DNA from: an uncultured Bacillales bacterium
GTDB taxonomy: Bacteria; Bacillota_I; Bacilli_A; RF39; UBA660
Reading direction: 5' to 3'
Assembly (NCBI GenBank): GCA_948433085.1
Contig: CAOJDP010000003.1
Span: forward strand, 5,787 to 69,786
Length of the DNA: 64,000 bases
The position numbers were made by a program, and so were the translations under genes. Below, in pieces: positions 2,557 through 27,288 of the stretch (the first letter of the stretch is position 1; every line of letters starts with the position of its first letter). The notes under the pieces were generated by a model that saw nothing but the letters and a program-made list of their open reading frames with translations, made no database searches and had not been told where the DNA came from.

Positions 2557-4608
2557 ATGCTACTGAATATAACAATAGGCAGAGAATGGGCGTTTTGGAC
2601 TGCTTTAATTATGACACTTATACTAGTAATTGTACTTTCATTTACAAAAAAAAGTAAAGAAGGAAACCGTGATAAACTTATTCAAACTTTAATTCGAAAT
2701 TCCGATACAATCTATATGATGTGTGAGCATGATCGAAGAAGTTTAATTTATATTACCCAAAATGTATTTGAAGTATTGGGATTAAAGGAAATACAAGGAA
2801 CACGTTCAGAAACAGATATCATTACAGAAATTTTTCAAGTTCCAGTAGTACAAAATGAATTGAGAAGCTGGAATGGAAATTCTGAATACATTACTCAAAT
2901 GTTTTCTTATCACAATCCTTTATATCAACATACAAGATGGCTTAAAATCAAAATTTATCCTTTTTGGGAAAAAGATGTTCAATATGATGTCATTTTAGTC
3001 TCAGACGTTACACAAGAACATGATCGTCAACATTTACTTGTAACACAAACAAAAGATATCAAAGCAAGAGAACAACAACTCAATCAAATTACATCTATTT
3101 CATATGATATGGAAATGAATATTGACTTATTATCAGGTGAAATGGAATATCGTAAGTTAAAAGAGGATGCAATTTATTTGGGAAATCATCAAACGGGAAA
3201 ATTTGAAACAGTATTTCCAGAGATGATTCATCACTATGTAATCGAAGAAGATCGAGAAAAAGTATTAAATATATTTTCATATGAACATTTGAAAGAAATT
3301 ACAGAAGGGGAAGATTTAGAACCTGTATCTGTTCGTTATCGTGTACAAAAAAATGAGGATATGATATGGTTAGAGAGTACAGCTTTCTTTATTGTCAGTC
3401 AGGGAGAAACCAAAGTGACAATTTTAACAAAAAATGTAACAGAAGATGCTGAATATATGCGTAGGCAAAACACAATGTTACAAAATGCGTTAAAGGAAGC
3501 AGAAAAAGCCAATGCTTCTAAATCTGAATTTTTAGCCGTAATGTCTCATGAAATTAGAACACCAATGAATGCAATTATTGGTTTATCAGAATCTGCTTTA
3601 GAAGAAAAACTTTCAACAGTCGTAAGAGAAGACTTAGAAAATATTAATAGTGCAAGTAATAATTTACTTGAAATTATTGACGGTATTTTAGATATATCCA
3701 AAGTGGAAAAAGGTGTTTTAGAATTACAAGAAAAGGAATACAATGTTGCTAAACTCTTAAAAGATGTAATCAATGTAGGAAAAGAAAGAGTTGGTAAGAA
3801 AAAAATTAGAATTGAAACAGAGATAGATGAGAATATTCCTGTGACAGTATTAGGGGATAGTAGTAAATTAAGACAGATATTGAATAACTTAATGGATAAT
3901 GCAGTCAAATTTACTGATCTTGGAACAGTTACTTTAAAAGCAACAGGAGTAAAGAAAAATTCTAATGTAGTTTTGAAAATTTCTATAGAAGATACAGGTA
4001 TGGGAATGTCGGAAGAAAAATTAGATGAAATTATAGCGCAATCAAATACTTCTAATACAGGTTTATCAATTGTAAAAAAATTAATTGAGCTATTGAAAGG
4101 TGAGTTAGAAGTTGAAAGTGTTGAAGAGACTGGAACTACATTTACTGTAACGATTACACAAAAAGTGATTGATGATAGGCCAATTGGTAATTTAGAGATT
4201 CATAAAACAAGAACAAAAAAAGTAAATCCATTTTCTATTCCAAATAAGAAAGTGCTTATTGTAGATGATAATAAGTTAAATTTAAAAGTAGCCTCTCGCC
4301 TATTGGAACCTTATCAAGTTAAAGTGGAAACAGTTATGAGTGGTCAAGCATGTTTAAATTTAATTGAAAAAAATCAGAAATATGATTTAATTCTATTAGA
4401 TCAAATGATGCCTGAGATGGATGGAATTGAAACTTTAAAAAAATTAAAAGAAAATTCAAAATTTAAAACACCTGTAATTGCTTTAACAGCAGATGCGATT
4501 GTTGGAAAAAAAGAAGAATATCTTGCATCAGGATTTAATGATTACTTACCAAAACCAATTGATAGTAATGAATTGCATAGAATTTTAAAAAAGTATTTGC
4601 AAAAGTAA
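2557..4608 (+). CDS. Hybrid sensor histidine kinase (N-terminal membrane anchor, PAS-like region, HisKA, HATPase_c, C-terminal receiver domain)
   Basis: H-box SHEIRTPMNAIIGLSE; N/G boxes (LMDNAVKFT, EDTGMGM, GLSIVKKLIELLKG); the C-terminal VLIVDDNKLNL...LILLDQMMPEMDG is a REC domain. Confidence 0.85.
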   Translation: MLLNITIGREWAFWTALIMTLILVIVLSFTKKSKEGNRDKLIQTLIRNSDTIYMMCEHDRRSLIYITQNVFEVLGLKEIQGTRSETDIITEIFQVPVVQNELRSWNGNSEYITQMFSYHNPLYQHTRWLKIKIYPFWEKDVQYDVILVSDVTQEHDRQHLLVTQTKDIKAREQQLNQITSISYDMEMNIDLLSGEMEYRKLKEDAIYLGNHQTGKFETVFPEMIHHYVIEEDREKVLNIFSYEHLKEITEGEDLEPVSVRYRVQKNEDMIWLESTAFFIVSQGETKVTILTKNVTEDAEYMRRQNTMLQNALKEAEKANASKSEFLAVMSHEIRTPMNAIIGLSESALEEKLSTVVREDLENINSASNNLLEIIDGILDISKVEKGVLELQEKEYNVAKLLKDVINVGKERVGKKKIRIETEIDENIPVTVLGDSSKLRQILNNLMDNAVKFTDLGTVTLKATGVKKNSNVVLKISIEDTGMGMSEEKLDEIIAQSNTSNTGLSIVKKLIELLKGELEVESVEETGTTFTVTITQKVIDDRPIGNLEIHKTRTKKVNPFSIPNKKVLIVDDNKLNLKVASRLLEPYQVKVETVMSGQACLNLIEKNQKYDLILLDQMMPEMDGIETLKKLKENSKFKTPVIALTADAIVGKKEEYLASGFNDYLPKPIDSNELHRILKKYLQK

Positions 4609-13490: not shown

Positions 13491-14560
13491 ATTCTTTATC
13501 AAATGGTGGTGCAGAACGAGTCGTAAGCAATATGGCAAATGAAATGGCTAAAAACGGCTTAAAAGTTTTTATTTTAACTGTATATAATGATGTAACTTAT
13601 GATTTTCATGATAATATAGAGATTATAAGTTTATCGAAAAGGAAATTAAATAAATATAAGAAAATAGGTTATCTTCCTTTTTTGGTACATCGTTTGAATC
13701 AATATTTAAATCATATTTTTAAAAATTATGAGGTAAAACTTATTACATCCCATTTATTGTATTCTAATTTGTTAAGTCGACTATCGAAATATCGTCAAAA
13801 AACGATTCAAGTCGTACATATTCCATATCAGCCATATGATAAGCATAATCATTGGTTATTTCAAAAAGGAATTCAGTTTTTGTATAATCATACACCCATT
13901 GTGACTGTTTCAAATGGATGTATGCATGAATTATTAGATATTTACCATGTGAAAACTAAAAAAATTACGACGATTTATAATCCAATCAATTTATTTGAAA
14001 TTCAAAAAAAATCACAAGAAAAATTACAAATAAAAAAGCCATATATTTTGTTTGTTGGAAGATTGTCAGAACAAAAAAGACCTGAGCTAATGTTAGATAT
14101 TTTTTATCAGGGAAAGTTTTATGAAAATTATCATTTGTATTATTTAGGCACTGGACCTTTAGAGAAATCTTTACAAGAAAAAGTAAAAAATTTCCATTTA
14201 GAAGAATCTGTTACTTTAAAGGGATGGTGTTCGAATGTATATCCTTATATGAAATCTGCTTCTATATTAGTGAATACCTCATCTTATGAAGCATTTCCTA
14301 TGATTTTAATCGAAGCACTTGCTTGTAATTGTAAGATTGTTAGTTTTGATATTCCATATGGGCCAAATGAGATATTAAAAGATGATTTATCTTGTTATTT
14401 GGCAAGAAATCAAAATATAGAAGATATGATTCAAAAAATAAGGGATGCTTTGGTAGATTATCCCAATGTTTTAGAAAATAGAGTAAGGGATTTAGATGTT
14501 GCTCTTATAAATGAAAAATATATGCAAACTTATTTAGATTGGAATAATAAACATGGATAG
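13463..14560 (+). CDS. GT4-family glycosyltransferase
   Basis: SNGGAERVV N-terminus and a C-terminal EAFPMILIEALACNCKIVSFD motif. RBS AAGGAGTG upstream. Confidence 0.85.
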   Translation: MEKAIIFLVNSLSNGGAERVVSNMANEMAKNGLKVFILTVYNDVTYDFHDNIEIISLSKRKLNKYKKIGYLPFLVHRLNQYLNHIFKNYEVKLITSHLLYSNLLSRLSKYRQKTIQVVHIPYQPYDKHNHWLFQKGIQFLYNHTPIVTVSNGCMHELLDIYHVKTKKITTIYNPINLFEIQKKSQEKLQIKKPYILFVGRLSEQKRPELMLDIFYQGKFYENYHLYYLGTGPLEKSLQEKVKNFHLEESVTLKGWCSNVYPYMKSASILVNTSSYEAFPMILIEALACNCKIVSFDIPYGPNEILKDDLSCYLARNQNIEDMIQKIRDALVDYPNVLENRVRDLDVALINEKYMQTYLDWNNKHG

Positions 14561-15572
14561 AGTTAGTATTATTGTTCCTGTTTATAATAACGAGAATTAT
14601 ATTTTAAAGTGTATGAATAGTTTATTGAATCAAACTTATTCTAATATTGAAATTATTGTAGTAGATGATGGTTCTACTGATTCAACTTATGAAGTATTAA
14701 AGCAATATCAAAATGAGATAATTATTCTTCATCAAGATAATCATGGAGTATCTTATAGTCGAAATCGTGGAATGGAAGTAGCAACAGGTACTTATATTAT
14801 GTTTGTAGATAGTGATGATTGGATTGCACCTGATATGGTAGAAACTTTAATGAAAATGACAGAGAATGGCTCTATCGATATTGTTAGATGTGGTTATATT
14901 CGAGAATATCCTAAACATAAAGATACTTTTCAAATTTGTACAGAAAATTTAAAAATAATAGACAATAAGAATATTATTTATGAAATGTTTATCAAAGACT
15001 ATCGTTTGGCTTCTCCTTGTTGCCAAGTGATACATAAAAAATGTATCGAAACAAAATTTGATGAAACCATTCAAGTAGGAGAGGATTATTTATTTAATTT
15101 AGCACTTTATACACATGCCTCCTCTTTTGTTTTTTTAAAGGATGCCTATTATCATTATTTGTATAATTTTGAAAGTGCAACAACTAGTGTTGGTAGGAAA
15201 AAAATAGAAAAAAGATGTGAAGATGCACTCTTAGTATATTCTAAATTATATGATTATTTAAAAATTTGGAAGATAGAAAATAAGAAGAATATACAGAAGG
15301 TATCTTATCGTATTGTGAAAGAATTAAATATGAAATTACTTGCTTGTTTTCAAAACCATCACATGCCAAAAAAGGAACAAAAAAAATTAATGGATATTTA
15401 TTTTCATCATGTGTTATTAAAAGAAGCAAGAAAAAAATTATCAGTTGCTATGATTTTAAAGTATTTTCATATTTATACCTTATTTCTTCTTTGTTTAAAG
15501 ATGAATTTAAAGAATTTGTATTATATTTTAGGACGAACAATTTATTATACCTTATATTCCATTAAAAAGTAG
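14553..15572 (+). CDS. GT2-family glycosyltransferase
   Basis: SIIVPVYN...VDDGSTDST...FVDSDD (DXD) GT-A signatures. Translationally coupled to the upstream gene. Confidence 0.85.
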   Translation: MDRVSIIVPVYNNENYILKCMNSLLNQTYSNIEIIVVDDGSTDSTYEVLKQYQNEIIILHQDNHGVSYSRNRGMEVATGTYIMFVDSDDWIAPDMVETLMKMTENGSIDIVRCGYIREYPKHKDTFQICTENLKIIDNKNIIYEMFIKDYRLASPCCQVIHKKCIETKFDETIQVGEDYLFNLALYTHASSFVFLKDAYYHYLYNFESATTSVGRKKIEKRCEDALLVYSKLYDYLKIWKIENKKNIQKVSYRIVKELNMKLLACFQNHHMPKKEQKKLMDIYFHHVLLKEARKKLSVAMILKYFHIYTLFLLCLKMNLKNLYYILGRTIYYTLYSIKK

Positions 15573-15579
15573 GTGATTT

Positions 15580-16515
15580 ATGAAGGCATTGGTTTCTGTG
15601 ATTGTTCCTATTTATCGTGTAGAGTTATATATAGAAGAATGCATTGATTCTATATTAAATCAAACTTATTCCAATTTAGAAATTATTTTAGTTGATGATG
15701 GAAGTGATGATCGATGCCCTAGTATATGTGATGCATATCAAAAGAAAGATTCACGTATTCATGTAATTCATAAGGAAAATGGGGGATTATCTGATGCAAG
15801 AAATGTAGGCATTGATGTTGCCAAAGGGGACTATATTTGTTTTATTGATTCTGATGATGCGGTGCATCCTTGTTTTATACAAACTTTGTATGATGATTTA
15901 ATATCTACAAATTCTGATATAGCAATTTGTCATTATGAAAAGGTAGATAGGATTCCTGATATGATAGAATTTCAAGGAAAATTAAATCGAAATGTTTATA
16001 CGCAAACAGAACTTTTAAATTCTTTATATGGACCCGAAACATTATCTATTATTGTGGCTTGGAATAAGTTATATCGTAGACATATTTGGGAGCAATTGCG
16101 TTATCCTGTAGGGAAAGTGCATGAGGATGAATTTGTGATTCACTATATTTTAGATCAGGTAAATCAGGTCGTAATTAATGCAGGAACATACTATTATTAT
16201 CGGCAAAGGGAAGGTAGTATTACGAGTTGTTATAATGAAAAACGGTTACATGCATTAGAAGCATTAGAGAATCGAATTCAATTTTATCAAACTATCGCAA
16301 ACGAAACACTTGTCCATCAAACAATGTATCAATACTTTTTTATGATTATAAGACATATGAAACAAATGCGTAAGCAAAAGCAATTTACGGATTTAAAAAA
16401 GGAGTTACGAAAAAAACTTGGGTATTTATGGAAAAGTTTAATCATTTGTAAAGATATTCCATTTTTGAAAAAGATAAAATTAAGTCTTTATGGAATGAAA
16501 AGTAAAATGCTGTAG
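15580..16515 (+). CDS. GT2-family glycosyltransferase
   Basis: VSVIVPIYR...VDDGSDD...FIDSDD GT-A signatures. AGGTGA RBS. Confidence 0.85.
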   Translation: MKALVSVIVPIYRVELYIEECIDSILNQTYSNLEIILVDDGSDDRCPSICDAYQKKDSRIHVIHKENGGLSDARNVGIDVAKGDYICFIDSDDAVHPCFIQTLYDDLISTNSDIAICHYEKVDRIPDMIEFQGKLNRNVYTQTELLNSLYGPETLSIIVAWNKLYRRHIWEQLRYPVGKVHEDEFVIHYILDQVNQVVINAGTYYYYRQREGSITSCYNEKRLHALEALENRIQFYQTIANETLVHQTMYQYFFMIIRHMKQMRKQKQFTDLKKELRKKLGYLWKSLIICKDIPFLKKIKLSLYGMKSKML

Positions 16516-16526
16516 GAGGAATTTGT

Positions 16527-17552
16527 ATGTTATGTAAAGATTTGTTAAAAAAGTTTCTGTATGTATCTGCTTATAAAAGATATATAAGAACTTGTAAAAA
16601 AAGTGGTCAAAAAAAATATATTTTGTTTGGAACTCCAAAACATGGTAATATTGGAGATCATGCAATTACTTTAGCAGTGTATCAATTTTTTAAAGATATG
16701 GGAAAACAGATATTTGAGGTTTCTAGTTTTGATCGTAAATATATTTTACCTTATATGCAAAAACATATTAATAAAGAGGATATACTTATGATTAATGGTG
16801 GAGGATTTATGGGATCGCTTTGGATAGAGGAAGAAAAGATGATTCGTGATGTATTTTCCCATTTTTTATATCATAAAATCGTTATTTTACCACAAACTAT
16901 ATATTATAAAGAAGATTGTTTAGGGATGAAGGAAATGAATACCTCTTTTAAACTTTATAATGCACATCAAGATTTAGTTGTATGTACTAGAGAAGCTATT
17001 TCTTATCGATTTGCTTGTGAACATTTTAAAATGGCAAAAGTAATTTTTGTTCCTGATATGGTATTATACTACGATAATTTTTGGAGTGATGAAAATAGAA
17101 AGAATGTTCTTTTTTGTCTTAGAAGTGATTCTGAAAAAAGTGTACAAGAGGCAACCATACAAAATATCAAAAAAATTTTTAATCAAATCAATCAACAAAT
17201 TGTGTATACAGATACAGTTATTCATAAGGGAATTTCTAAAAAAGAACGCAATTCTGTTTTTATCAATAAGTTGCTTGAATTTTCAAAATATGAGATAATA
17301 GTAACTGATCGATTGCATGGGATGATTTTTGCAGCGTTAACGGAAACCCCATGTATTGTTTTAAGTAATTATAATTATAAAGTAAAAGGTGTTTATGAAT
17401 GGATTAAGGAGCTAGAATACGTTCGCTTTATAGAAGATGAAAGTCAATTAGAAAAAAATATTTTAGAATTATTATCACAAAAATTCCCACATCAAAAAAG
17501 AGTGTGTGATAAAACAAAGTTTGCAGAATTAATTACTTTATTTGAGGAGTGA
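16527..17552 (+). CDS. Polysaccharide pyruvyl transferase (CsaB/WcaK family)
   Basis: N-terminal GTPKHGNIGDHAITLA and a C-terminal DRLHGMIFAAL...PCIVL motif are typical of PS_pyruv_trans. AGGAGG RBS. Confidence 0.75.
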   Translation: MLCKDLLKKFLYVSAYKRYIRTCKKSGQKKYILFGTPKHGNIGDHAITLAVYQFFKDMGKQIFEVSSFDRKYILPYMQKHINKEDILMINGGGFMGSLWIEEEKMIRDVFSHFLYHKIVILPQTIYYKEDCLGMKEMNTSFKLYNAHQDLVVCTREAISYRFACEHFKMAKVIFVPDMVLYYDNFWSDENRKNVLFCLRSDSEKSVQEATIQNIKKIFNQINQQIVYTDTVIHKGISKKERNSVFINKLLEFSKYEIIVTDRLHGMIFAALTETPCIVLSNYNYKVKGVYEWIKELEYVRFIEDESQLEKNILELLSQKFPHQKRVCDKTKFAELITLFEE

Positions 17553-17556
17553 AAAG

Positions 17557-18645
17557 ATGGATAAAATAAAAAAATATATAGAGTGTTATATTCCAACAGA
17601 AACCTGTAATTTTAGGTGTCATTATTGTTATATTGCACAGCAGGGAAAGTTTAAAAATAAATTAGCAAAATTCATTAAAACACCTCAAGAAATCAGAGCT
17701 GCTTTTACAAAAAAAAGGCTAGGTGGAACTTGCCTCTTTAATTTGTGTGCAGGTGGAGAAACATTATTAGTAAAAGAGATTGTGGAAATTACGCGTCAAT
17801 TATTAGAAGAAGGACATTATGTTATGATTGTAACCAATGGGTCACTTAGTAATCGTTTTAAAGAGTTTGCTCAATTTCCAAAAGCATTATTACATCGCTT
17901 GATTTTTAAATTTTCTTTTCATTATATAGAGCTCAAGAAAATGAAATTGCTTGATCAATATTTTGATAATGTAAATTTAATGAAAAAATCAGAGGCTTCT
18001 ATTGTAGTAGAAATTACCCCAAATGATGAAACAGAAGAATATATTTCTGAAATCAAGGAAATTTGTATGGAAAAGCTAGGTGCTTTGCCACAAGTTACAA
18101 TTGCTAGAAATGATAATGATCGAAGAATTAGTCATTTGTCTAAACATAGTTTTGAAGATTTTGTCAAAATATGGAGTGCGTTCGATTCCCCCATGTTGGA
18201 TTTTAAATCAACAATATTTTATAAAAAAAGAAAAGAGTATTGTTATGCAGGGGATTGGAGTATTTATGTCAATTTAGTAACAGGGGAATATTCTCAGTGC
18301 TATTGTGGAATTCGTCTTGGTAATGTCTATGAAAATATTAATCAGCCACTCAAATTGATAGCAATGGGGAAGAAGTGTTCTTTACCACACTGCTATAATG
18401 GTCATGCTTTTATTACACTTGGAGATATTCCAGAATTAGATGCGATTACATATGCAGAGCTTAGAAATCGTATCAGTGGAGATGGGACTGAATGGTTGAG
18501 TAAAGAAATGAAAGAATTTATTGGTACGAAATTGTCAGAATCGAATTCTAAATATAGTAGTATTCAGAAAATTAGCAATGAAGTAAAAAGGTATGGAACA
18601 GCATTCAATAATCGAATCAAAAAAAGGAAAACAAAAGATAATTGA
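17557..18645 (+). CDS. Radical SAM enzyme with a C-terminal Cys-rich (SPASM/twitch-like) extension
   Basis: CNFRCHYC CxxxCxxC motif, a GGE-like CAGGETLL motif, and C-terminal cysteines (CYAGDW...QCYCG...CSLPHC). RBS GAGGAGTGA precedes ATG 17557. Confidence 0.8.
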   Translation: MDKIKKYIECYIPTETCNFRCHYCYIAQQGKFKNKLAKFIKTPQEIRAAFTKKRLGGTCLFNLCAGGETLLVKEIVEITRQLLEEGHYVMIVTNGSLSNRFKEFAQFPKALLHRLIFKFSFHYIELKKMKLLDQYFDNVNLMKKSEASIVVEITPNDETEEYISEIKEICMEKLGALPQVTIARNDNDRRISHLSKHSFEDFVKIWSAFDSPMLDFKSTIFYKKRKEYCYAGDWSIYVNLVTGEYSQCYCGIRLGNVYENINQPLKLIAMGKKCSLPHCYNGHAFITLGDIPELDAITYAELRNRISGDGTEWLSKEMKEFIGTKLSESNSKYSSIQKISNEVKRYGTAFNNRIKKRKTKDN

Positions 18646-18647
18646 TT

Positions 18648-20186
18648 ATGAAAAAGCAAATTTTAATTAATATTATTGCTAGTATTATTGCATTTCTTGT
18701 TCAAATGGTAATTAGTTTTGGTTTAACCCCAATATTGGTTAATTCATTAGGGGAAGATGCTTATGGATTTATTGGTTTGGCTAATAATTTTGTTACTTAT
18801 GCGACTGTTTTTACAGTAGCAATTAATTCCATTGCTGGTAGATTTATATCTATTGCGTATAATAAGGGAGAAATAGAAAAAGCCAATTCTTATTATTCTT
18901 CCTTATTTTTTGCAAATGCAATATTATCAATTGTCATATTTTTCTTATCTATTTTTATTACAATTGAATTACATAATATTATAAAAATACCATTTTCACT
19001 TAATTATGATGTTAAGATTACTTTTTTGCTTGTATTTATTAATTTTATATTTTCTTTGTTCCATGTTACTTTTCAAGTGGTACCGTTTGTAAAGAATAAA
19101 GTAAGTTTAGTATCTGTTGTAACAGCAGTTTCTAATATTTTAAAAGTTGCGATTATTTTATGTTTATTTTCATTATTTCAACCTAAAATTTATTATATTG
19201 CCATTGCGACTTTAGCTTATAGCACTATTTTATTAGTATTATGTATTTGTATTTCCAAAAAATTATCTTCTGAATTAAAGATTCATGTGCATTCTTTTGA
19301 TTGGAAATCAGTAAAAACTTTATTTGTTTCAGGTATTTGGAATTCTATTAATAATCTAAGTAGAATTATATTAGTTGGTTTTGATTTATTAATTGCAAAT
19401 ATATTTGTAGGATCTTATTCTATGGGAATTTTGTCAATTTCCAAAAATATTCCAAATGCAATTGATACTTTATTATCCACATTAGCAGTTGCATTTGTTC
19501 CTAGTATTACTATTTCGTATGCTAAAAATAGAATTCAAGATGTTATCTCTGAAATAAAATTTTCTATGAAAATGATTGCTTTATTAATGATTGTTCCAGT
19601 TGCAGGGTTTATTATTTTTGGAACAGACTTTTATAGATTGTGGTTACATAAGTCGATAGAAGAAGTAAAATTAATTCAATTGTTATCTGTTTTAACTTTA
19701 ATTCCCTATATGTTTAGTATTTGCAACTTTACATTACCAAATATTGATACGATAACCAATAAATTAAAACGGGCTTCTATTTTCACGTTGGCAATGAGCA
19801 TCGTCACTTTAATTACAGAAATTGTCGTTTTAAAGACGTCTGATTTAGGTGTAATTGCAATTGCAAGTGTTAGTTCCTTTTATTGGGTAATAAAGTTAGC
19901 AATCTTTAATCCGCTCAATGCAGCTAAAAATTTAAATGTAAAATGGTATACATTTTATCCTGATTTTTTAAAATCATTTTTCTGTTTTTGTCTTATTTTG
20001 ATTTTATATCTATTTTTGTATCAATATATGTCTATTACTTCTTGGAAGGATTTAATTCTTTCAGCAATACTTTTTGGTACGATTGGATATGTGATTAGTT
20101 TTCTTTTCATTTTAAATAAAAAAGAAAAAAATTGGGTTTATAACAAAATTTCCAGCCGTTTGCCGTTTGTAAACGGGGGGGGGTAA
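18648..20186 (+). CDS. Wzx-type oligosaccharide flippase (polysaccharide biosynthesis protein, MOP superfamily)
   Basis: About 500 aa with 12-14 TM helices, inside a glycan locus. It ends ...FVNGGG* on a G9 tract. The start was set at ATG 18648; the track begins at TTG 18642. Confidence 0.8.
   Translation: MKKQILINIIASIIAFLVQMVISFGLTPILVNSLGEDAYGFIGLANNFVTYATVFTVAINSIAGRFISIAYNKGEIEKANSYYSSLFFANAILSIVIFFLSIFITIELHNIIKIPFSLNYDVKITFLLVFINFIFSLFHVTFQVVPFVKNKVSLVSVVTAVSNILKVAIILCLFSLFQPKIYYIAIATLAYSTILLVLCICISKKLSSELKIHVHSFDWKSVKTLFVSGIWNSINNLSRIILVGFDLLIANIFVGSYSMGILSISKNIPNAIDTLLSTLAVAFVPSITISYAKNRIQDVISEIKFSMKMIALLMIVPVAGFIIFGTDFYRLWLHKSIEEVKLIQLLSVLTLIPYMFSICNFTLPNIDTITNKLKRASIFTLAMSIVTLITEIVVLKTSDLGVIAIASVSSFYWVIKLAIFNPLNAAKNLNVKWYTFYPDFLKSFFCFCLILILYLFLYQYMSITSWKDLILSAILFGTIGYVISFLFILNKKEKNWVYNKISSRLPFVNGGG
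20175..20183 (+). repeat. G9 homopolymeric tract (candidate slipped-strand phase-variation site or homopolymer error hotspot)
   Basis: GGGGGGGGG sits directly 5' of the Wzx stop TAA (20184-20186). It is unique in this AT-rich window. Confidence 0.9.
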
Positions 20187-20247
20187 AATTTTAATTGTTA
20201 TTGTTATCATTTTTAGTTTTCTATTTTTAATTCAAAGAAAAGAAAAT

Positions 20248-20979
20248 GTGCAATATATTCATTTTTCAGTAGATGACACCATTCTATTGTTTGCTGATTT
20301 AGAGCAAAATAAAGATGTGTATACTAGTATATTTGAGAATGCTACTTTAAAATATTTTCAAAGATTACATAAGCAGTATGGATTAAAAGTTACTTTTTAT
20401 TGTTTCTACGAATTTTCGAATGTTTCTTTAGAAAATATTACCAGTCAGTATCGGAAAGAGTTTGAAGAAAATTCTCATTGGTTACAATTTGGATTTCACG
20501 CTTATGATGCAGGAAGAGAATATGATAAAGATTCTTTCCATTATAGTATTACAAATGATTATCTAACTGTTATTCAGGCATTAGAAAATATTGTTGGAGA
20601 AAAAGCGATTAGCAAGCATTTACGATTAGAGAAATTTTCTTTAAATGAAGGGAATGCAAATTGTTTAAAAGATGTGGGAATTCAAATTCTATTTGGAAGT
20701 GATACTTTAGAAAAAAATAGTTATTATTTAAACAGTGAACAATCTTATCAGTTGTTTACCAAGGGTTATTATTATGATTGGAAAAAACAACTTCAATTTT
20801 ATAAAACGGATATTCGAATAGAGCAATCAAAAGGTGTAGAAGATATGATTCAGGATATAAAAGGAGATTCTTATTTAGTTATTTTTACACATGAATGGTT
20901 ATTGAGTGATTTATTAAAAGAAAAAATGGAATTACTCTTGAAACAATTGCAGAAATATAAATATCAATTTTCTATATAA
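20248..20979 (+). CDS. Hypothetical protein, possibly a divergent NodB/CE4-like deacetylase-type fold (weak)
   Basis: GTG start with a weak RBS. It contains HFSVDD and FHAYDAGREY motifs. The frame is open upstream back to 20173 and there encodes a hydrophobic segment KILIVIVIIFSFLFLI. Confidence 0.45.
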   Translation: MQYIHFSVDDTILLFADLEQNKDVYTSIFENATLKYFQRLHKQYGLKVTFYCFYEFSNVSLENITSQYRKEFEENSHWLQFGFHAYDAGREYDKDSFHYSITNDYLTVIQALENIVGEKAISKHLRLEKFSLNEGNANCLKDVGIQILFGSDTLEKNSYYLNSEQSYQLFTKGYYYDWKKQLQFYKTDIRIEQSKGVEDMIQDIKGDSYLVIFTHEWLLSDLLKEKMELLLKQLQKYKYQFSI

Positions 20980-21002
20980 AGTTGGTAGAAGTGAGGTTAG
21001 TG

Positions 21003-22022
21003 ATGAAGAAAGAAATTAAAGTCAAGTTTGTAGATTTTTACGACTCTTATAATCCAAAAGAACATTTTTTGTATCAAGCGTTGGAAAGAAAATACCATGT
21101 TGTTTTATCTGATAAACCAGATTATTTGTTCTTTTCTGTATTTGGTGATGAACATTTGCATTATGACTGTATTAAAATATTTTATACAGGAGAAAATTTA
21201 TGTCCAGATTTTAATTTATGTGATTATGCAATAGGTTTTGAATATTTAGAGTATCAAGACCGCTATATGCGTTTACCAAATTATTACCATCCAGCATATG
21301 CAAAAGATTTGAATGCTATGTTGAAAAGGACATCATTTACAGAAGAAGATTTAGTGCAAAAGGAAGGATTTTGTAGTTTTGTTTATTCCAATGGAAATGC
21401 AGATCCTATTCGTGAAATATTTTTTGAACAATTATCTCAGTATAAACAAGTTCATTCAGGGGGTAAATTTAAAAATAATATTGGTGGACCCGTAGCAGAT
21501 AAAATTGAATTTCAAAGAAAATATAAATTTTGTTTAGCTTTTGAAAATTCTTCCCATCCTGGATATACTACAGAAAAATTAATTCAAGCTTATGCTTCTA
21601 ATGCAATTCCAATCTATTGGGGAGATCCATTTGTGACGAAAGTGTTTAATGAAAAATCGTTTATCAATGTAGGTGCTTATAATACGATAGAAGATGCGAT
21701 TGCTTTTATTCAAAAAATAGATAGGGATGATTCGCTTTATTTGGAAATGATGCATGAATCGCCATTATGTGTAGAAGAAAATGTGATTGCATATAAAATG
21801 GATGAATTAAGTGCTTTCTTATCCAATATTATGGAGCAACCTTTTGAAAAAGCGAAACGTTATAATCGAGTATGTATTGGAAAAAAATATATTCAAAAAT
21901 TGAAATTATGGAACAAAGCATATGATAAAAAAATAAAAGTGCGAATGAAAAAATTTATATTTAAAATGAAAAAATTTAGGGTAAATGTATTGAAAAAATA
22001 TAGATTATTTGGATATAGATAA
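21003..22022 (+). CDS. GT10-family alpha-1,3-fucosyltransferase-like glycosyltransferase
   Basis: GT10 signature KYKFCLAFENSSHPGYTTEKLIQAY (FxLxFENSxxxxYxTEK) and a C-terminal basic amphipathic repeat region (KKYIQKLKLWNKAYDKKIKVRMKKFIFKMKKF). GTGAGG RBS before ATG 21003. Confidence 0.65.
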   Translation: MKKEIKVKFVDFYDSYNPKEHFLYQALERKYHVVLSDKPDYLFFSVFGDEHLHYDCIKIFYTGENLCPDFNLCDYAIGFEYLEYQDRYMRLPNYYHPAYAKDLNAMLKRTSFTEEDLVQKEGFCSFVYSNGNADPIREIFFEQLSQYKQVHSGGKFKNNIGGPVADKIEFQRKYKFCLAFENSSHPGYTTEKLIQAYASNAIPIYWGDPFVTKVFNEKSFINVGAYNTIEDAIAFIQKIDRDDSLYLEMMHESPLCVEENVIAYKMDELSAFLSNIMEQPFEKAKRYNRVCIGKKYIQKLKLWNKAYDKKIKVRMKKFIFKMKKFRVNVLKKYRLFGYR

Positions 22023-22127
22023 TCTATTTTTTTATAAGAATGAATATAAGATATAATAGGATTTTTTTAAAAAATCTTATTTCTAAAATTCAAGATATTT
22101 GTTTGTCCTTCTTAATACAAAAATTTA

Positions 22128-22158
22128 TTTTCCATTCAAGTAATGGAAAAATTTTTTT
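22128..22158 (+). terminator. Rho-independent terminator ending the glycosyltransferase operon
   Basis: 9 bp stem TTTTCCATT / AATGGAAAA with a 5 nt loop, followed by ATTTTTTTAT. Confidence 0.5.
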
Positions 22159-22310
22159 ATGTAATCTATATTTAGTTGAGTAGCAATTAAACATAAATTT
22201 TCCTTTTACAATTGAGAAATACATATGCGAATAAAAACTTTAAAAAATATTTAATTTTTGAAAACGATATGTTATAATAATCTTGTGAAGCTAGTAGAAA
22301 GAAGTGAATT

Positions 22311-23756
22311 ATGTCAAAGAAAAAAAATAAAAAAAATAGAATAATTGTGCAAAGAATTGGAACAGTATTATCTATTTTATTATTCGCAATTTCATTTGTA
22401 TTTTTTACAATGTTATTTCAGGTAAGTGTATTGCCAATGAAGTATCTTTTAATTGTTTTAGGAATTTATTTACTTGTTGTGTTGGGCTCTGTAGCAATTT
22501 TATTGATTCCAAAGATTAAAATAAAGTTAAAAATAGTAGTAGAGATTTTATCTACAATCATAATTATTTTTGTAAGTTTTATTTCATTTTATTTATATAA
22601 GACAATGGATTTTATGGGGAATATTAAAGCGAAAGATTATCAAATTGAAAATTATTATGTAGTTGTTTTAAAAGATAGTAAATACGAAACATTAGAAGAT
22701 TTGAAAAGTAAAACAATCGGGCTTCATCGGAGTAATTTGGAGAGTCAAAAAGATGCAATCGAAACGTTGAATAAAAAGCTATCTTATACAGATGAAGAAT
22801 ACGAAGATTTTATGAAATTAGGGAAAGATTTATTAGACAAACAAGTAGATGCGATATATATGAATGGTTCATATTTGTCCATTTTACAAGAAGAAAATGA
22901 ATCATTTGAAGAAAAAACAAAATTACTAGCAACAATAGAGTTACAAGTAAAAAATGAAACAGTAAAAAAAGATACAAATGTAACAAAAGAGCCATTTAAT
23001 ATATATATTAGTGGAATTGATACATATGGGGATATTTCTTCTGTATCAAGAAGTGATGTAAATATTATTGCTACGGTAAATCCTGTTACACATAAAGTGT
23101 TGTTAACTTCAATACCAAGAGATTACTATGTAAGACTTCATGGAACTACAGGCTATAGAGATAAGTTAACACATGCTGGAATTTATGGAATTGATATGTC
23201 AATTACAACATTAGAGGATTTACTTGATATTGATATCAACTATTATGTGAGAGTGAATTTTACTACTCTCATAGAACTTGTAGATGCAGTAGGTGGTGTA
23301 ACTGTGAATTCAGATTATAATTTTACTGCTATTTCAGGAGAAAAATTTATAAAGGGTGACAATATCTTAAATGGATCACAAGCACTTGCTTTTTCAAGAG
23401 AACGTCATGCATTTATAGATGGAGATCGTCAACGTGGCAAAAATCAACAAAAAGTAATTACAGCAATTATTAATAAAGCATTAAGCTCTACAACATTAAT
23501 TACAAAATATACGAATATATTAAATTCATTGCAAGATAGTTTTCAAACAAATATGGACAGTAATAAAATATATGATTTAGTGAATATGCAATTAAATAAA
23601 ATGCCATCTTGGCAAATTGAATCCATTAATTTAGATGGAACAGGAAAAAGTGAATTTACTTATTCTTATAGTGGGCAAAAACTATATGTAATGGAACCAG
23701 ATGTTAGTACGGTAAATGCAGCGCAAGCAAAAATAAATGAAGTAATAGGAGGGTAA
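22311..23756 (+). CDS. LytR-CpsA-Psr (LCP) family glycopolymer ligase with N-terminal multi-TM region
   Basis: LCP domain: NIYISGIDTYGD...NIIATVNPVTHKVLLTSIPRDYYV...VRVNFTTLIELVDAVGGVTV...FSRERH. Three to four N-terminal TM helices. Confidence 0.85.
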   Translation: MSKKKNKKNRIIVQRIGTVLSILLFAISFVFFTMLFQVSVLPMKYLLIVLGIYLLVVLGSVAILLIPKIKIKLKIVVEILSTIIIIFVSFISFYLYKTMDFMGNIKAKDYQIENYYVVVLKDSKYETLEDLKSKTIGLHRSNLESQKDAIETLNKKLSYTDEEYEDFMKLGKDLLDKQVDAIYMNGSYLSILQEENESFEEKTKLLATIELQVKNETVKKDTNVTKEPFNIYISGIDTYGDISSVSRSDVNIIATVNPVTHKVLLTSIPRDYYVRLHGTTGYRDKLTHAGIYGIDMSITTLEDLLDIDINYYVRVNFTTLIELVDAVGGVTVNSDYNFTAISGEKFIKGDNILNGSQALAFSRERHAFIDGDRQRGKNQQKVITAIINKALSSTTLITKYTNILNSLQDSFQTNMDSNKIYDLVNMQLNKMPSWQIESINLDGTGKSEFTYSYSGQKLYVMEPDVSTVNAAQAKINEVIGG

Positions 23757-23768
23757 CCTCCTTTTTTG
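23747..23768 (+). terminator. Rho-independent terminator after the LCP gene
   Basis: AGGAGG / CCTCCT stem with loop GTAA (which contains the stop codon), then TTTTTT. Confidence 0.5.
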
Positions 23769-23954
23769 TAGAAAATAAAATATACAAGCGGTGTAAATAG
23801 GTTAAATAGATGCTCTAATGCTTAGATAGAATCTTTATAATTCTCAATAGTCATAGGATAAAACGAGAAGATATATAGAGTAATTTTTACTTCAATTAGT
23901 ACTTTTATTTTGTTGTAAAATTTTGTATAATGGAATGAGAATGGAGATGGAGAT

Positions 23955-25232
23955 ATGGCAGGTATCAAAATAAAATCTCATAAAGAAATGTCGAAAGATA
24001 GTTTTACAATTTATAATAAGCCAAAATACATTTATATTCCATTAATGGGAAGCAATGACCAAGATATTACAGTTTTCGTTAAAAAAGGAGACTATGTATG
24101 TAAAGGAGAAATGGTCGCTAGAAGAAAAGGTGCCTTTTCTATTCCTTTTCATACCAGTGTAAGTGGAACTGTAATTGGTTTTGAAGAAAAACTACATCAT
24201 AGTGGGACCTATGTCAGATGTATTAAAATTGAAAATGATTTGAAAGAGCGAGTAGAAGAATCACTAGAAATAAAAGAAAATTTATCCAAGGAAGAATTTA
24301 TTGAAACAATTAAAAATGCAGGAATTATAGGAATGGGGGGTGCAGGCTTTCCAACCTATATTAAATATCAAACCGATCAAAAAATAAAAACTTTAATTGT
24401 AAATGCAGTAGAATGTGAGCCATATATTACAGCAGATTATACTCTTGGAATTCAAAAAGCAGAAGCAATCTTAGAAACAATTGATCGAATAATGGAAATA
24501 AACGAAATTGAAAAAGCTTTTATTGCAGTTAAAAAAAACAATCAGCAATTCATTCAAGCTTTTCAATTTGTAATAGGTACTTATGTAAATATTGAAATTA
24601 AAATAGTGCCAGATTGCTATCCTATGGGATGGGAAAAAATGTTGGTAAAAACAATAACCAAAAAAACATATCAAAAACTTCCCATTGAAATTGGTGTAGT
24701 TGTAAATAATTTATCTACAATTTATGCAATACATCAAGCTTTAACAGGGATTCCACTCATTGAAAGAATAATTACCATTACAGGGGATTTGGTAAAAAAA
24801 CCACAAAATGTACAAGTAAAAATAGGAACTCCACTTCATGAAGTGATTGAAGCAATCAGTGGAATGAAACGTCATAAAGATGTTATTTGTATCGCAGGTG
24901 GTCCTATGATGGGGAATGCTTTAAAAGAAGATGATGTAATTGTGACAGCTGATTTGAATGGTCTGATTTTGTTAAAAGAAAAAGAGGAATGTAAGGAACA
25001 TACTTGTATGCGTTGTGGAAAATGTATAAATGTTTGTCCAGCAGGTATTGAACCAGTTCTTATCAAAGAATCATATCAAGATAAGGAACAATTAAATCGT
25101 TTGCAAGTTGGAAAATGTATTGAATGTGGTTTATGTTCTTATATTTGTCCAGCAAAAATAAATGTGAGAGAATATGTTAGAAAAGCGAAAAAGACTGTTA
25201 GAAAGGAGACTGCAAATGAAAGAATATCATGA
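23955..25232 (+). CDS. rnfC: Rnf electron transport complex subunit C
   Basis: NADH/FMN-binding GIIGMGGAGFPTYIKY and two 4Fe-4S motifs (CMRCGKCINVCP; CIECGLCSYICP). Confidence 0.85.
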   Translation: MAGIKIKSHKEMSKDSFTIYNKPKYIYIPLMGSNDQDITVFVKKGDYVCKGEMVARRKGAFSIPFHTSVSGTVIGFEEKLHHSGTYVRCIKIENDLKERVEESLEIKENLSKEEFIETIKNAGIIGMGGAGFPTYIKYQTDQKIKTLIVNAVECEPYITADYTLGIQKAEAILETIDRIMEINEIEKAFIAVKKNNQQFIQAFQFVIGTYVNIEIKIVPDCYPMGWEKMLVKTITKKTYQKLPIEIGVVVNNLSTIYAIHQALTGIPLIERIITITGDLVKKPQNVQVKIGTPLHEVIEAISGMKRHKDVICIAGGPMMGNALKEDDVIVTADLNGLILLKEKEECKEHTCMRCGKCINVCPAGIEPVLIKESYQDKEQLNRLQVGKCIECGLCSYICPAKINVREYVRKAKKTVRKETANERIS

Positions 25233-26661
25233 ACAAACAGGTCCTTTTTGTAGGGATCAAGATTCTACAACTAAAATGATGTTTCATTTAGTAATTGCTC
25301 TTTTACCAATTGTATTGTTTAGTTTTTATAAAAATGGGCTTGTTCCTTATCAACATCACAAAGTAGGATTGTATGGACTATTTCATCCACTTTTATTTAT
25401 TCTAATTCCTACAGTTGTTACCTATTTAACAGAGTGGGTAGGAGCACGGTTACTTTTACAAAAAAAGGGCTTAGAATTAAAAGATTATATGCGACATTCT
25501 TATGCATTAATACCAGGTTTGTTTTTAGGTTTGATTTTGCCTTTAAATACACCTATTCCTATTTTATTATTTGGCTCTGTATTAGCAACCTTAATTGGTA
25601 AATTGGTATATGGAGGATTTGGCAATAACATTTTCAATCCTGCACTCATTGGAAGACTCTTTATTATTACAACTTATGCTGGTGTAATTGCAAGTCAAGG
25701 AGGTTATTTCAATGCTTATGAATTAGATACCATTAGTCAAGCAACGCCTTTATCCAATCTTACAACAATAGAAGGGATTGGAAGTTATGAAACATTAGTT
25801 GCTCCTTATGGTACTTTGTGGAATTTTTTTACAGGAATGATTCCAGGTGCAGTCGGGGAAACAAGTGCTCTTTTATGTTTGTTTGCATTTCTTTATCTTG
25901 TATGGAAAAAAGTCATTAAATGGAAAATATCTATTTGTTATATTGGAACTGTTTTTCTTCTAACCGCATTGATTGGATGTTTAAATGGGCTTACTTTATG
26001 GTATCCTATGTTTCAAATATTGAGTGGAGGACTTTTCTTTGGTGCTATTTTTATGGCAACTGATCCAGTTACTTCCCCAGTTACAAAACAGGGACAGATT
26101 TTATATGGAATTTTTTTAGGAATTTTGACTGTAATACTCCGTTATTTTACAAGTTATCCTGAAGGTGTTTTAACGAGTATTTTGACAATGAATTTATTTG
26201 TTTTTATTATTGATAAATTAGGAATTCAAAGTAAAAATAAAGAAAAAAGTTTATTATTATTTGCATCTATTGTAATCATAATGGGAATTTTAGTATATCA
26301 AATAAATACACTGTATTCTTATCATGGTGAAAAAGTAGATCCTAACTTTTCATTGATAGAAGAACATCAAGTAGGAAAAAAAGTTATTTATAAGGTATCT
26401 CAAAAAGGAAATGGTGGACCAATTCTATGTGAAGTGGTTATTCAAAATGGAAAAATTGAAAAACTAGAGGTATTAGAGCACAATGAAACACCAAGTTATT
26501 ATTCAATTATAGAAAAAGAAAATTATTTAAATACTCTTATAAAAGAACAAATGCATTTACCAGAATTGGATACAGTAAGTGGGGCAACAATTTCATCTAA
26601 TGCATTAAAAAAACTAGTATTGAATACATTACAAGAATATGAGGAACATTATGGAAAATAA
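25216..26661 (+). CDS. rnfD-rnfG: Rnf subunit D fused to a C-terminal RnfG-like FMN-binding domain
   Basis: NqrB/RnfD-type polytopic N-terminus of about 330 aa, including GAIFMATDPVTSP. The C-terminal roughly 150 aa carry the FMN_bind signature DTVSGATISSNALKK. GGAGAC RBS precedes ATG 25216. Confidence 0.8.
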   Translation: MKEYHEQTGPFCRDQDSTTKMMFHLVIALLPIVLFSFYKNGLVPYQHHKVGLYGLFHPLLFILIPTVVTYLTEWVGARLLLQKKGLELKDYMRHSYALIPGLFLGLILPLNTPIPILLFGSVLATLIGKLVYGGFGNNIFNPALIGRLFIITTYAGVIASQGGYFNAYELDTISQATPLSNLTTIEGIGSYETLVAPYGTLWNFFTGMIPGAVGETSALLCLFAFLYLVWKKVIKWKISICYIGTVFLLTALIGCLNGLTLWYPMFQILSGGLFFGAIFMATDPVTSPVTKQGQILYGIFLGILTVILRYFTSYPEGVLTSILTMNLFVFIIDKLGIQSKNKEKSLLLFASIVIIMGILVYQINTLYSYHGEKVDPNFSLIEEHQVGKKVIYKVSQKGNGGPILCEVVIQNGKIEKLEVLEHNETPSYYSIIEKENYLNTLIKEQMHLPELDTVSGATISSNALKKLVLNTLQEYEEHYGK

Positions 26662-26751
26662 AAAAATTAAGGGCGTATTCGCGCTAACAATAACAACCTT
26701 TATATGTACATTGCTTCTTTATTTGATTATGAATTTTATTGGGGGTTAACA

Positions 26752-27288
26752 ATGTCTTTAAATTCATTTTATTATAAGTTGTTACACATTGAATCAAAAC
26801 CTTTATCAGAAACTTACATTTTATGGGAAATTGAGGAAACTATAAAGGAAGAAATGGATTCGATTCAAAATTGGTCAAGTAGTATTGAGGGACTTTGTAA
26901 AGTTGCAAGTTACCATATTGGTGAAATGCTAAGACAAAAAGGGATATCTATTGCGTATTTGAATACTAAGAATTTTTCTTGTGCGTTTGAGCATGTTGCA
27001 CTATTAGTTTACTATGAAATAAGCAATGAAATAAAGTATATTTTAATTGATGTAACATATGAACAATTTCTTCCTGTTGCAAATAGAAGACTTAATCCTA
27101 AATTGAAAAGCTGGCCTGGGATATGTTTAATGGAAAATAATTTTAGTTTGTATGAAAACTTATGTACCAAAGGTTATTCTTCCATTACAATCAAGGACTT
27201 AAATGATTATATGAAAAGTTTTGGATATACAAACAATTTAAATAATAATTTATTTGATGTGATTCTACATACACATAAGAAAAAATAA
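26752..27288 (+). CDS. Hypothetical protein inserted between rnfDG and rnfE
   Basis: 178 aa from ATG 26752 (GGGGG RBS). No TM helix and no recognisable Rnf subunit signature. It has a Cys...His...Asp arrangement (SCAFEHVALLVYY...ILIDVTYEQF) faintly reminiscent of transglutaminase-like cores. Confidence 0.4.
   Translation: MSLNSFYYKLLHIESKPLSETYILWEIEETIKEEMDSIQNWSSSIEGLCKVASYHIGEMLRQKGISIAYLNTKNFSCAFEHVALLVYYEISNEIKYILIDVTYEQFLPVANRRLNPKLKSWPGICLMENNFSLYENLCTKGYSSITIKDLNDYMKSFGYTNNLNNNLFDVILHTHKKK

Follow-up and report, generated by a model that had tools for sequence, protein, structure and literature searches.

How is a gene translated when no canonical start codon lies ahead of it? The question is raised by a capsule/exopolysaccharide (EPS) locus in a 64,000-nucleotide (nt) stretch of DNA from an uncultured Bacillales bacterium, the whole of which is called the window here. 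The gene for a Wzx-type oligosaccharide flippase ends there in an uninterrupted run of nine Gs (GGGGGGGGG, G9; 20175..20183, plus strand), and its stop codon, TAA 20184..20186, follows directly. Beyond it, at 20188..20979 on the same strand, lies the open reading frame (ORF) of a protein that we call X, which belongs to an unnamed family and is predicted, from an AlphaFold model and Foldseek searches, to be a membrane-anchored protein of CE4/NodB-like fold. The X frame is +1 relative to that of Wzx and is open back to TAA 20170-72, reading TGGGKILIVIVIIFSFLFLIQRKENVQYIHFSVDD; between that stop and GTG 20248..20250, the start chosen by ORF and gene callers (243-amino acid [aa] product, P0001), it contains no ATG, GTG or TTG (20173-20247). 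We consider it highly probable that all of the following hold together: the G9 tract is genuine, Wzx and a CE4-like enzyme are joined there, the hydrophobic segment that follows is the anchor of that enzyme, the GTG start is wrong, and the configuration is conserved and under selection. For the way in which ribosomes enter X we tentatively favor initiation at AUU 20188 with the G run as Shine-Dalgarno (SD) element, a reading to which we give a probability of roughly 0.4.

The G run stands out in its setting. The initial annotation had singled it out as the only long G run, placed directly before the Wzx TAA, and this is confirmed: at a window GC content of 28.7%, the second-longest G runs are three of G6, and all C runs are of 5 or fewer. 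By chance a G9 is expected 0.02 times per window, and one was present in 2 of 100 dinucleotide-preserving shuffles. The run encodes the last three Gly codons of Wzx, is slippage-prone, and resembles an SD element: its duplex with the 3′ end of 16S rRNA is computed at -14.6 kcal/mol, whereas the 54 ORF starts surveyed in the window have a median of -10 and only one of them exceeds the run (-17.1). The Wzx stop codon overlaps the X-frame codons GGT AAA, and the same GGG TAA A layout is found in L006, the only functional ortholog available. As sequenced, the window has no single ORF running from Wzx through a transmembrane (TM) segment into X, since the stop codon and the +1 offset intervene. When the tract is altered in silico, G8 or G11 lets the Wzx frame continue directly into the downstream ORF; for G8 this had been claimed before, and the product is collinear with natural fusions of 793-826 aa. 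With G9 (X-frame stretch upstream of GTG 20248: TGGGKILIVIVIIFSFLFLIQRKENVQY) or G10, X has no canonical start. A G10 tract adds only VKF to Wzx, and the frame upstream of X then reads QNFQPFAVCKRGGGKILIV / QNFQPFAVCKRGGGK..., again lacking a canonical start codon. The initial annotation had instead described, for G10, a signal-anchor ORF from TTG 20132 ('MGLNKIFQPFAVCKRGGG...'); that ORF does not exist, because the TTG is followed by GGT TTA TAA, with the stop at 20141-43.

Is the length of nine itself reliable? P0001 occurs on seven public contigs, of which five were retrieved. Four of these (L001, L003, L004 and L005) carry G9 and are 100% identical to the window over 1.7-12.7 kb, so that the window and these four assemblies, which come from several projects, agree on G9. 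In the fifth, L002 (4.8x coverage), a tenth G is the single difference from the window over 8.2 kb. G10 is also called in L102 (2.6x; window 19118-21285), which has five substitutions within 42 nt 5′ of the tract, spaced ~7-11 nt apart, and a 27-nt in-frame deletion in Wzx (window 19413-19439), and is otherwise identical apart from the extra G. The substitution cluster and the deletion are probably read or assembly artefacts, and both G10 calls deserve little weight. P0182, a 273-aa MAVCTRGGGKILIV variant that seemed to supply a canonical start at G10, was rejected, as it derives from L102 and shows the pattern typical of homopolymer-associated read errors. Homology searching of 5.8 billion cluster representatives, in which a G8/G11 fusion allele should have come out on top, did not find one, and neither did exact look-up among ~15 billion protein sequences. 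The JGI metagenome scan with X peptides gave no matches, the genome-contig scan did not contain the allele of the window species (best match 47% identical), and a pattern search with the junction DNA returned one unrelated chance match, L099, from a higher-GC HlyD-type locus. As a separate observation, 12.7 kb of the capsule locus (window 14248-26979) recurs with zero substitutions in metagenome assemblies from at least 3 projects, which implies a widely distributed clone.

What kind of protein is X? No sequence match was found in Pfam, NCBIfam or PDB, and its 61 homologs are all unnamed. The AlphaFold model (57-sequence alignment; mean pLDDT 95) places an N-terminal helix (residues 2-18) ahead of an alpha/beta barrel, and the top 17 Foldseek hits of this model in PDB are CE4/NodB deacetylases or ArnD (Bc1960, SpPgdA, PdaC, chitin deacetylases), with E from 6e-6 to ~4e-4, probability ≥0.99 and TM-score 0.48-0.59. 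The invariant residues are S28, D30, D31, W99, G103, F104, H105, R147, Y180, R211, F234 and H236; this set holds an Asp-Asp pair, an Arg and two His, ordered like the CE4 motifs, and an H-x-x-x-H metal motif is not evident in the family alignment. The model has the NodB-homology fold, while membership of PF01522 and the full catalytic and metal motifs are missing. By this model X is a CE4-like-fold protein outside PF01522, and it is probably a de-N/O-acylase of the capsule repeat unit. The occurrence of the gene pair in several evolutionary states, described below, points to Wzx and the CE4-like enzyme as functional partners, with the enzyme acting on the flipped repeat unit.

Despite its missing start, X is maintained. 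Between the window and L006, 264 codons align gap-free with every invariant residue kept, and the ratio of nonsynonymous to synonymous substitution rates (dN/dS) is 0.18 overall and 0.15 in the catalytic part, at a dS of ~1.8-2.0 that is near saturation; Wzx, for comparison, gives 0.11 at dS 1.0. The 21 codons of the TM segment alone give 0.78, which is uninformative. An X that is open and constrained across 264 AT-rich codons at such divergence is therefore translated, and the reading of X as a pseudogene was rejected (dN/dS 0.15-0.18 over dS ~2, gaps and stops absent). Since neither lineage has the ATG, its loss predates the split between the window and L006. Upstream of the catalytic motif, L006 offers no canonical start to fall back on. 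On this comparison, ribosomes must get into the X frame by a non-standard route, no later than AAA 20185 / ATT 20188.

Where, then, does the protein begin? The initial annotation held that the hydrophobic segment upstream of GTG 20248, KILIVIVIIFSFLFLI, belongs with the downstream protein, and the alignments bear this out. The segment is in frame with the downstream ORF, and its core, ILIVIVIIFSFLFLI (20188..20232, plus strand), has the same length in L006. In P0003, P0004, P0007, P0009, P0016/18 and P0048/50 its counterparts in the alignment are N-terminal TM, signal-peptide or lipoprotein-signal segments, in the natural fusions the linker TM, and it precedes the (I)HFS(V/I)DD motif at the same short distance as in the anchored homologs. 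Other members of the X family begin MIHFSVDD and have no anchor. Judged by these alignments, the segment is a real, translated anchor of X. The weakness of the ribosome-binding site of GTG 20248, also remarked on earlier, is equally clear: its SD duplex of -3.7 kcal/mol, against the median of -10, lies near the weak end of the 54 window ORFs. The equivalent position of L006 lacks a start codon, and GTG 20248 is probably not the true start of X. As for topology, with five K/R and a net charge of +4 the last loop of Wzx (residues 489-509) implies that the C-terminus is cytoplasmic; both termini of Pseudomonas aeruginosa Wzx are cytoplasmic (PMC2932511). This positive cytoplasmic loop plus one further TM would put X outside the membrane, in agreement with homologs that bear cleavable or lipoprotein signals. 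An X initiated at AUU would have an uncharged N-terminus, like the L098 anchor MAFITLCILVG..., and a C-flank that is net negative over ~15 residues, features compatible with an N-in/C-out orientation.

Among relatives, this one flippase/deacetylase pair occurs in several states: an ATG overlap, a single fused ORF, a start-less gene behind a G run, and deletion remnants. Natural single-ORF Wzx-linker-TM-X fusions are found in at least 10 relatives, namely L012 (811 aa, with the same radical-SAM gene upstream), L021 (809 aa, with a different MOP flippase) and eight fusion protein clusters, P0069-P0076 (793-826 aa). The P0074 fusion reads ...SKKEKKKIITIVLKKINIKKLRR-ISVCFLFFIISIGFFITT-NRNKIHKY-IHISVDD, and the in-silico fusion of the window, ...NKKEKNWVYNKISSRLPFVNGGG-KILIVIVIIFSFLFLI-QRKENVQY-IHFSVDD, is collinear with it. 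In L098 and L103, the nearest split relatives, the tail of Wzx and the ATG of X overlap, X being in the +1 frame; in L103 this ATG lies inside that tail and opens a frame reading MKVKKLMLLTLCILIILYIYIYIG.... L101 and L007 have the opposite gene order. In L006, whose Wzx is 81% and whose X is 60% identical to those of the window, Wzx ends CGA GGG GGG TAA and the +1 frame after the tract, GGT AAA ATT TTA ATT GTT ATT..., reads KILIVICLLLSIFAIFYRQEQSKFIHFSIDD; canonical starts are lacking there up to TTG 6001, a codon already past the catalytic HFSIDD motif, and the database call P0002 (210 aa) is a truncation that lacks this motif. L088 retains the anchor, with an internal deletion, a DD -> DA change and a G run eroded to GAGGGG, and L087 and L089 have neither X nor G run. 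At L088 4040-4200, the anchor and an N-terminal piece are joined to ...VVIFTHE*; in L090-L097 (~4100-4260) only a C-terminal X remnant is left, and these X remnants lie between Wzx and an LCP gene. Taken together, these loci show that close relatives have lost X repeatedly and recently. The initial annotation had pointed to orthologous loci as a check on the tract and for TM-anchored homologs; the latter were found, but the L006 tract is only G6 and is interrupted.

The offset between the two frames has a history. When L103, L098, L006, L088 and the window are aligned over the junction, their Wzx stop codons are in register, the X-frame GTT AAA of L103 matches GGT AAA of L006 and the window, and the 5′ part of the G run, GAG/GGG, stands where L103/L098 have the ATG of X. 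The old SD of L098/L103, a GAGG placed 10 nt ahead of that ATG, is missing from L006, where a new GAGG-GGGG stands 8 nt before ATT, as if the ribosome-binding site had been shifted whole by ~13 nt downstream. The ancestor of the clade was most likely an overlapping gene pair with X in the +1 frame, and in the lineage of the window and L006 the region of the X ATG would have turned into the G run. Because the nearest split relatives overlap in the same +1 register, the offset is inherited, and is neither an error nor a recent slip. Moreover, any +1 overlap fuses upon a one-base deletion, so the collinearity of the G8 product with the fusions is not in itself evidence of frameshifting. Descent of the lineage from a fusion, which that collinearity had suggested, was withdrawn, since L103 and L098 are split overlapping genes in the same +1 register. 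Relative to L006, the alignment gives the window 8 extra bases at a 7-nt tandem duplication that closely precedes the G run in the tail of Wzx (CCGTTTG x2; 20156..20169, plus strand), read directly from the sequence, and 1 in the G run; with these 9 extra bases Wzx still ends at the same TAA as in L006. If one CCGTTTG copy is removed, the Wzx stop becomes TAA 20170-72, in the frame of X, and the G run lies between stop and start. A hairpin in the Wzx tail (CCGTTTGTAAACGG) was dropped as a candidate because it is not kept in L006.

Repeats in the anchor region of X are found in sister lineages as well. In the lineage whose Wzx is 69% identical, the X anchor contains a (TA)n repeat encoding YIYIYI (L103 364-450 vs L098 3222-3300): L103 has (TA)9 and an intact X of 275 aa, whereas in L098, with (TA)8, the anchor is out of frame with the catalytic domain and the public gene call P0010 (199 aa) is a truncation. 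At L007 3843-3884, the ATG of a signal anchor, MNVKKNTLTK..., overlaps the radical-SAM stop and is one base off at an A8 run (3851-3858); A9 would link ATG 3843 to X, and the radical-SAM gene there is split in two ORFs (2754-2939, 2932-3846). At L100 2445-2560 an X homolog directly follows Wzx, with an ATG and MKSLIKVKNIFIFVCVCIIICIYLF out of frame with ...YVDKHNKKIIHFSIDD; the break falls in an ATTT-rich stretch, and the public call, P0005, begins at an internal ATG.

How could ribosomes start X? Under the reading that we favor, the G run, having replaced the ancestral ATG position of X in the lineage of the window and L006, would act as a very strong SD element, and ribosomes, probably including those that have just terminated at the Wzx TAA, would start X at the weak near-cognate AUU 20188. 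The product would begin M-LIVIVIIFSFLFLIQRKEN and would be made at low level. Changes in tract length would largely be tolerated, as G10 adds VKF to Wzx and G8 or G11 gives the fused architecture of the relatives. The candidate start, ATT 20188..20190 (plus strand), lies 4 nt past the G run and 5-8 nt from its internal GGGGG registers; it is in frame, at SD spacing, in a place where a canonical start is unavailable. Window genes nearly all start at an ATG preceded by a strong SD (median duplex -10 kcal/mol), and a GGGGG-N5-6-ATG layout serves three other window genes. The Wzx TAA between the G run and ATT would be ideal for coupling to terminating ribosomes. ATT 20188 is kept in L006 (it is ATC in the L088 pseudogene), the start together with its SD, GGGGGGTAAAATT, is identical there (n=1), and the window and L006 share 25 nt, GGGGGGTAAAATTTTAATTGTTATT, without a mismatch; in their 6.5-kb alignment at 76% identity only three exact runs are longer, and the flanks of this one are poorly conserved. 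Where X is deleted or degraded (L087, L089, L090, L088), the G run is absent or eroded. In Staphylococcus aureus, conserved AUU/AUA starts (cvfC1, ccpN, infC) all have extended SDs and give ~10% of AUG output (PMC13009471).

Several points weigh against initiation at AUU 20188. An in-frame ATT, ATC or ATA at suitable spacing also occurs at 2 of 14 other intragenic runs of five or more Gs, and the AT-rich DNA of an Ile-rich TM often has ATT, which makes the geometry weak evidence; any G run, moreover, resembles an SD, so that the resemblance is not independent evidence. The nucleotide conservation of the junction is only moderate, its longest shared stretch ranking fourth. One T-to-G change would make an ATG, yet neither lineage has one. 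An SD does not need nine Gs, and a pure G9 at 29% GC resembles a contingency locus. Sister lineages break the frame at other repeats of the anchor region, (TA)8 versus (TA)9 and an A8 run, and the natural fusions show that a fused product is viable.

These last points lead to the possibility, raised in the initial annotation, of a phase or topology switch. In such a slipped-strand contingency switch, G8/G11 would give the in-frame Wzx-TM-X fusion (ON), G9/G10 would leave Wzx intact and X untranslated (OFF), and the sequenced populations would be mostly OFF; AUU initiation or frameshifting could, however, still express X at G9. The pure tract, unique in the window against an expectation of 0.02, stands within a capsule/EPS locus, where a glycan-tailoring gene is joined at its 5′ end; it is uninterrupted and long enough by the usual measure, G tracts being hypermutable from about eight or more. 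Its length is the sole difference between L002 and the window over 8.2 kb, its G8 product is collinear with at least 10 natural fusions, sister-lineage repeats at the same place fall in and out of frame (L103 (TA)9 intact, L098 (TA)8 broken, L007 A8, the ATTT-rich break of L100), and the frequent deletion of X in close relatives suits an accessory, variable trait. A switch is in these respects possible, but only G9 and G10 were seen: G9 in five assemblies, G10 only in the 4.8x and 2.6x contigs, one of them with five clustered substitutions like read error, and G8/G11 neither in the assemblies examined nor among ~15 billion proteins. The tract is not kept in orthologs either, being interrupted in L006 (GAGGGGGG, G6) and GAGGGG in L088, and in L006 X is intact and constrained in the same +1 state. 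The offset itself descends from an overlapping-gene ancestor and not from a recent slip out of a fusion. We regard the switch as unlikely on this evidence, though as a serious candidate. The cruder idea of a homopolymer sequencing or assembly error, with a true tract of G8 and a genome that encodes the fusion, draws on the general proneness of homopolymers to error and on the disagreement of the low-coverage contigs (G9 vs G10); it founders on the finding of G9 in the window and four assemblies of several projects that are 100% identical elsewhere, on the +1 offset across the short G6 of L006 and at the normal ATG overlap of L103/L098, and on the absence of the fusion allele from the public data searched. 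This explanation, which the initial annotation had offered alongside the switch, is very improbable.

The stop codon at the tract also calls recoding to mind. In a programmed ribosomal frameshift, ribosomes pausing with GGG in the P site and UAA in the A site would slip +1 (GGG -> GGU) or -2 and continue K-I-L-I-V..., yielding a fixed low ratio of fusion; a conserved GGG_UAA_A site would in this way, much as in prfB, give free Wzx and a Wzx-TM-deacetylase fusion from one mRNA. An SD-like run, a GGG that could re-pair and an immediate 0-frame stop are all present, the last two in L006 as well as in the window, and the GGG_TAA_A register is kept in L006 despite the 8-nt indel in the Wzx tail, which is compensated by 1 nt in the tract. 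The natural fusions represent a viable trans-frame architecture, in which the Wzx tail supplies a positive cytoplasmic loop before the TM, and frameshifting at G runs and stop codons is documented (herpes simplex virus thymidine kinase G7, prfB, Weiss et al. 1987 as cited; PMC5009743). Against this, Wzx would stop within three codons of the tract in two frames out of three, which makes the shared register weak evidence; a stimulatory RNA structure is not evident, such recoding has a very low prior outside prfB and mobile elements, and the ancestral state was two overlapping genes and not a fusion. The spacing is also unfavorable. In prfB the SD canonically stands 3 nt upstream of the shift codon, but here the SD-like sequence abuts the P-site codon: the G run (-14.6 kcal/mol) is contiguous with it, and a 3-nt spacer would leave only GGG as SD in the window. 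We find a frameshift doubtful. If it were true, a tailoring enzyme would be physically coupled to its flippase. Improbable, too, is a conventional start at GTG 20248, by which X would be a soluble 243-aa cytoplasmic enzyme and the hydrophobic stretch an untranslated spacer of T-rich DNA. Many family members do begin MIHFSVDD, a second frame of the same T-rich DNA is also hydrophobic, and the dN/dS of 0.78 over the 21-codon TM segment decides nothing; yet L006 has no start near the equivalent site and its first canonical start deletes the conserved motif, the SD of GTG 20248 is among the weakest in the window, and the segment is open, of the same length in both species, and as far from the motif as are the anchors of the closest homologs. 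Initiation at AUU 20188, which we prefer to all of these, and the four alternatives leave a remainder of probability that other explanations share.

The surroundings are those of a capsule/EPS operon. The Wzx gene (18648..20186, plus strand) encodes 512 aa from ATG 18648, with an in-frame TTG at 18642, and ends GGG GGG GGG TAA, for a C-terminus of ...FVNGGG*. Gene callers give it 512 aa in five other assemblies. It matches PF01943 at E 3e-11 and 43.7 bits (curated cut-off 28.2), and a crude hydropathy scan finds 13 hydrophobic segments. Directly downstream of X, in the same operon, is a GT10 fucosyltransferase gene (21003..22022, plus strand) with matches to PF18025 and PF00852. Directly upstream of Wzx lie polysaccharide pyruvyl transferase and radical-SAM genes (window 16527-18645), a pair that is syntenic in every related locus examined, the fusion loci included. 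The source genome has ~29% GC and carries LCP and Rnf genes, and its nearest relatives among metagenome-assembled genomes are labelled gut Clostridia or Bacilli.

What is to be learned from such a joint? Gene callers misplace the N-terminus of X, giving a soluble protein of 243 aa in the window and one of 210 aa lacking the catalytic motif in L006; anchored tailoring enzymes of this unnamed family are therefore systematically mis-annotated. The joint is, moreover, a compact test case, in that the same 20 nucleotides would yield different products under AUU initiation, frameshifting and slipped-strand switching. Recoding GGGGGGGGG to GGTGGAGGC would keep the Gly codons, remove the slipperiness and weaken the SD. 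Literature searches found neither the Wzx/CE4-like partnership nor a start-less enzyme joined by a G run described. The components are all of known kinds, and it is their combination, a start-less anchored tailoring enzyme with a G-run joint to a flippase and natural fusions in relatives, that appears to be new.

It is useful, finally, to set the locus beside the systems it resembles. With the natural Wzx-TM-X fusions it shares the domain order, a positive linker of similar length and one extra TM, followed after ~8-40 residues by the IHFSVDD domain; it differs in that its parts lie in different frames with a stop between them, and the identity is only 39-47%. X is like the CE4/NodB deacetylases (Bc1960, SpPgdA, PdaC) and ArnD in predicted fold and in the order of the Asp-Asp, Arg and His motifs, but has no PF01522, NCBIfam or PDB sequence match and no evident H-x-x-x-H. 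Poly-G/C contingency loci of surface-glycan genes are known from the capsule and lipooligosaccharide genes of Campylobacter, and the poly-G tract of Klebsiella pneumoniae rmpA is reportedly another case. The window is like them in that its genome is AT-rich and a glycan gene has a long G tract at its 5′ end, the frame being set by tract length; in contrast to them, its only ON frame would be a fusion to the upstream flippase and not its own frame restored, neither an ON allele nor reliable length heterogeneity was observed, and the ortholog tract is short and interrupted. From prfB (RF2), with which it has in common an SD-like G-rich element, a slippery P-site codon, an A-site stop and a downstream frame at +1, it departs in having GGG in place of CUU, an SD that abuts the shift codon, no autoregulatory logic and a two-domain membrane protein as product, the shift here being predicted. 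Set beside the AUU/AUA starts of S. aureus cvfC1, ccpN and infC and of E. coli infC and pcnB, the candidate start of X differs in that a pure G9, doubling as coding sequence for the C-terminus of the upstream protein, would be its SD, in that the upstream stop lies between SD and start, and in that its use is predicted from sequence; what all of them would have in common is a weak near-cognate start behind an unusually strong SD, conserved between species, at a site where a canonical start is unavailable (PMC13009471).

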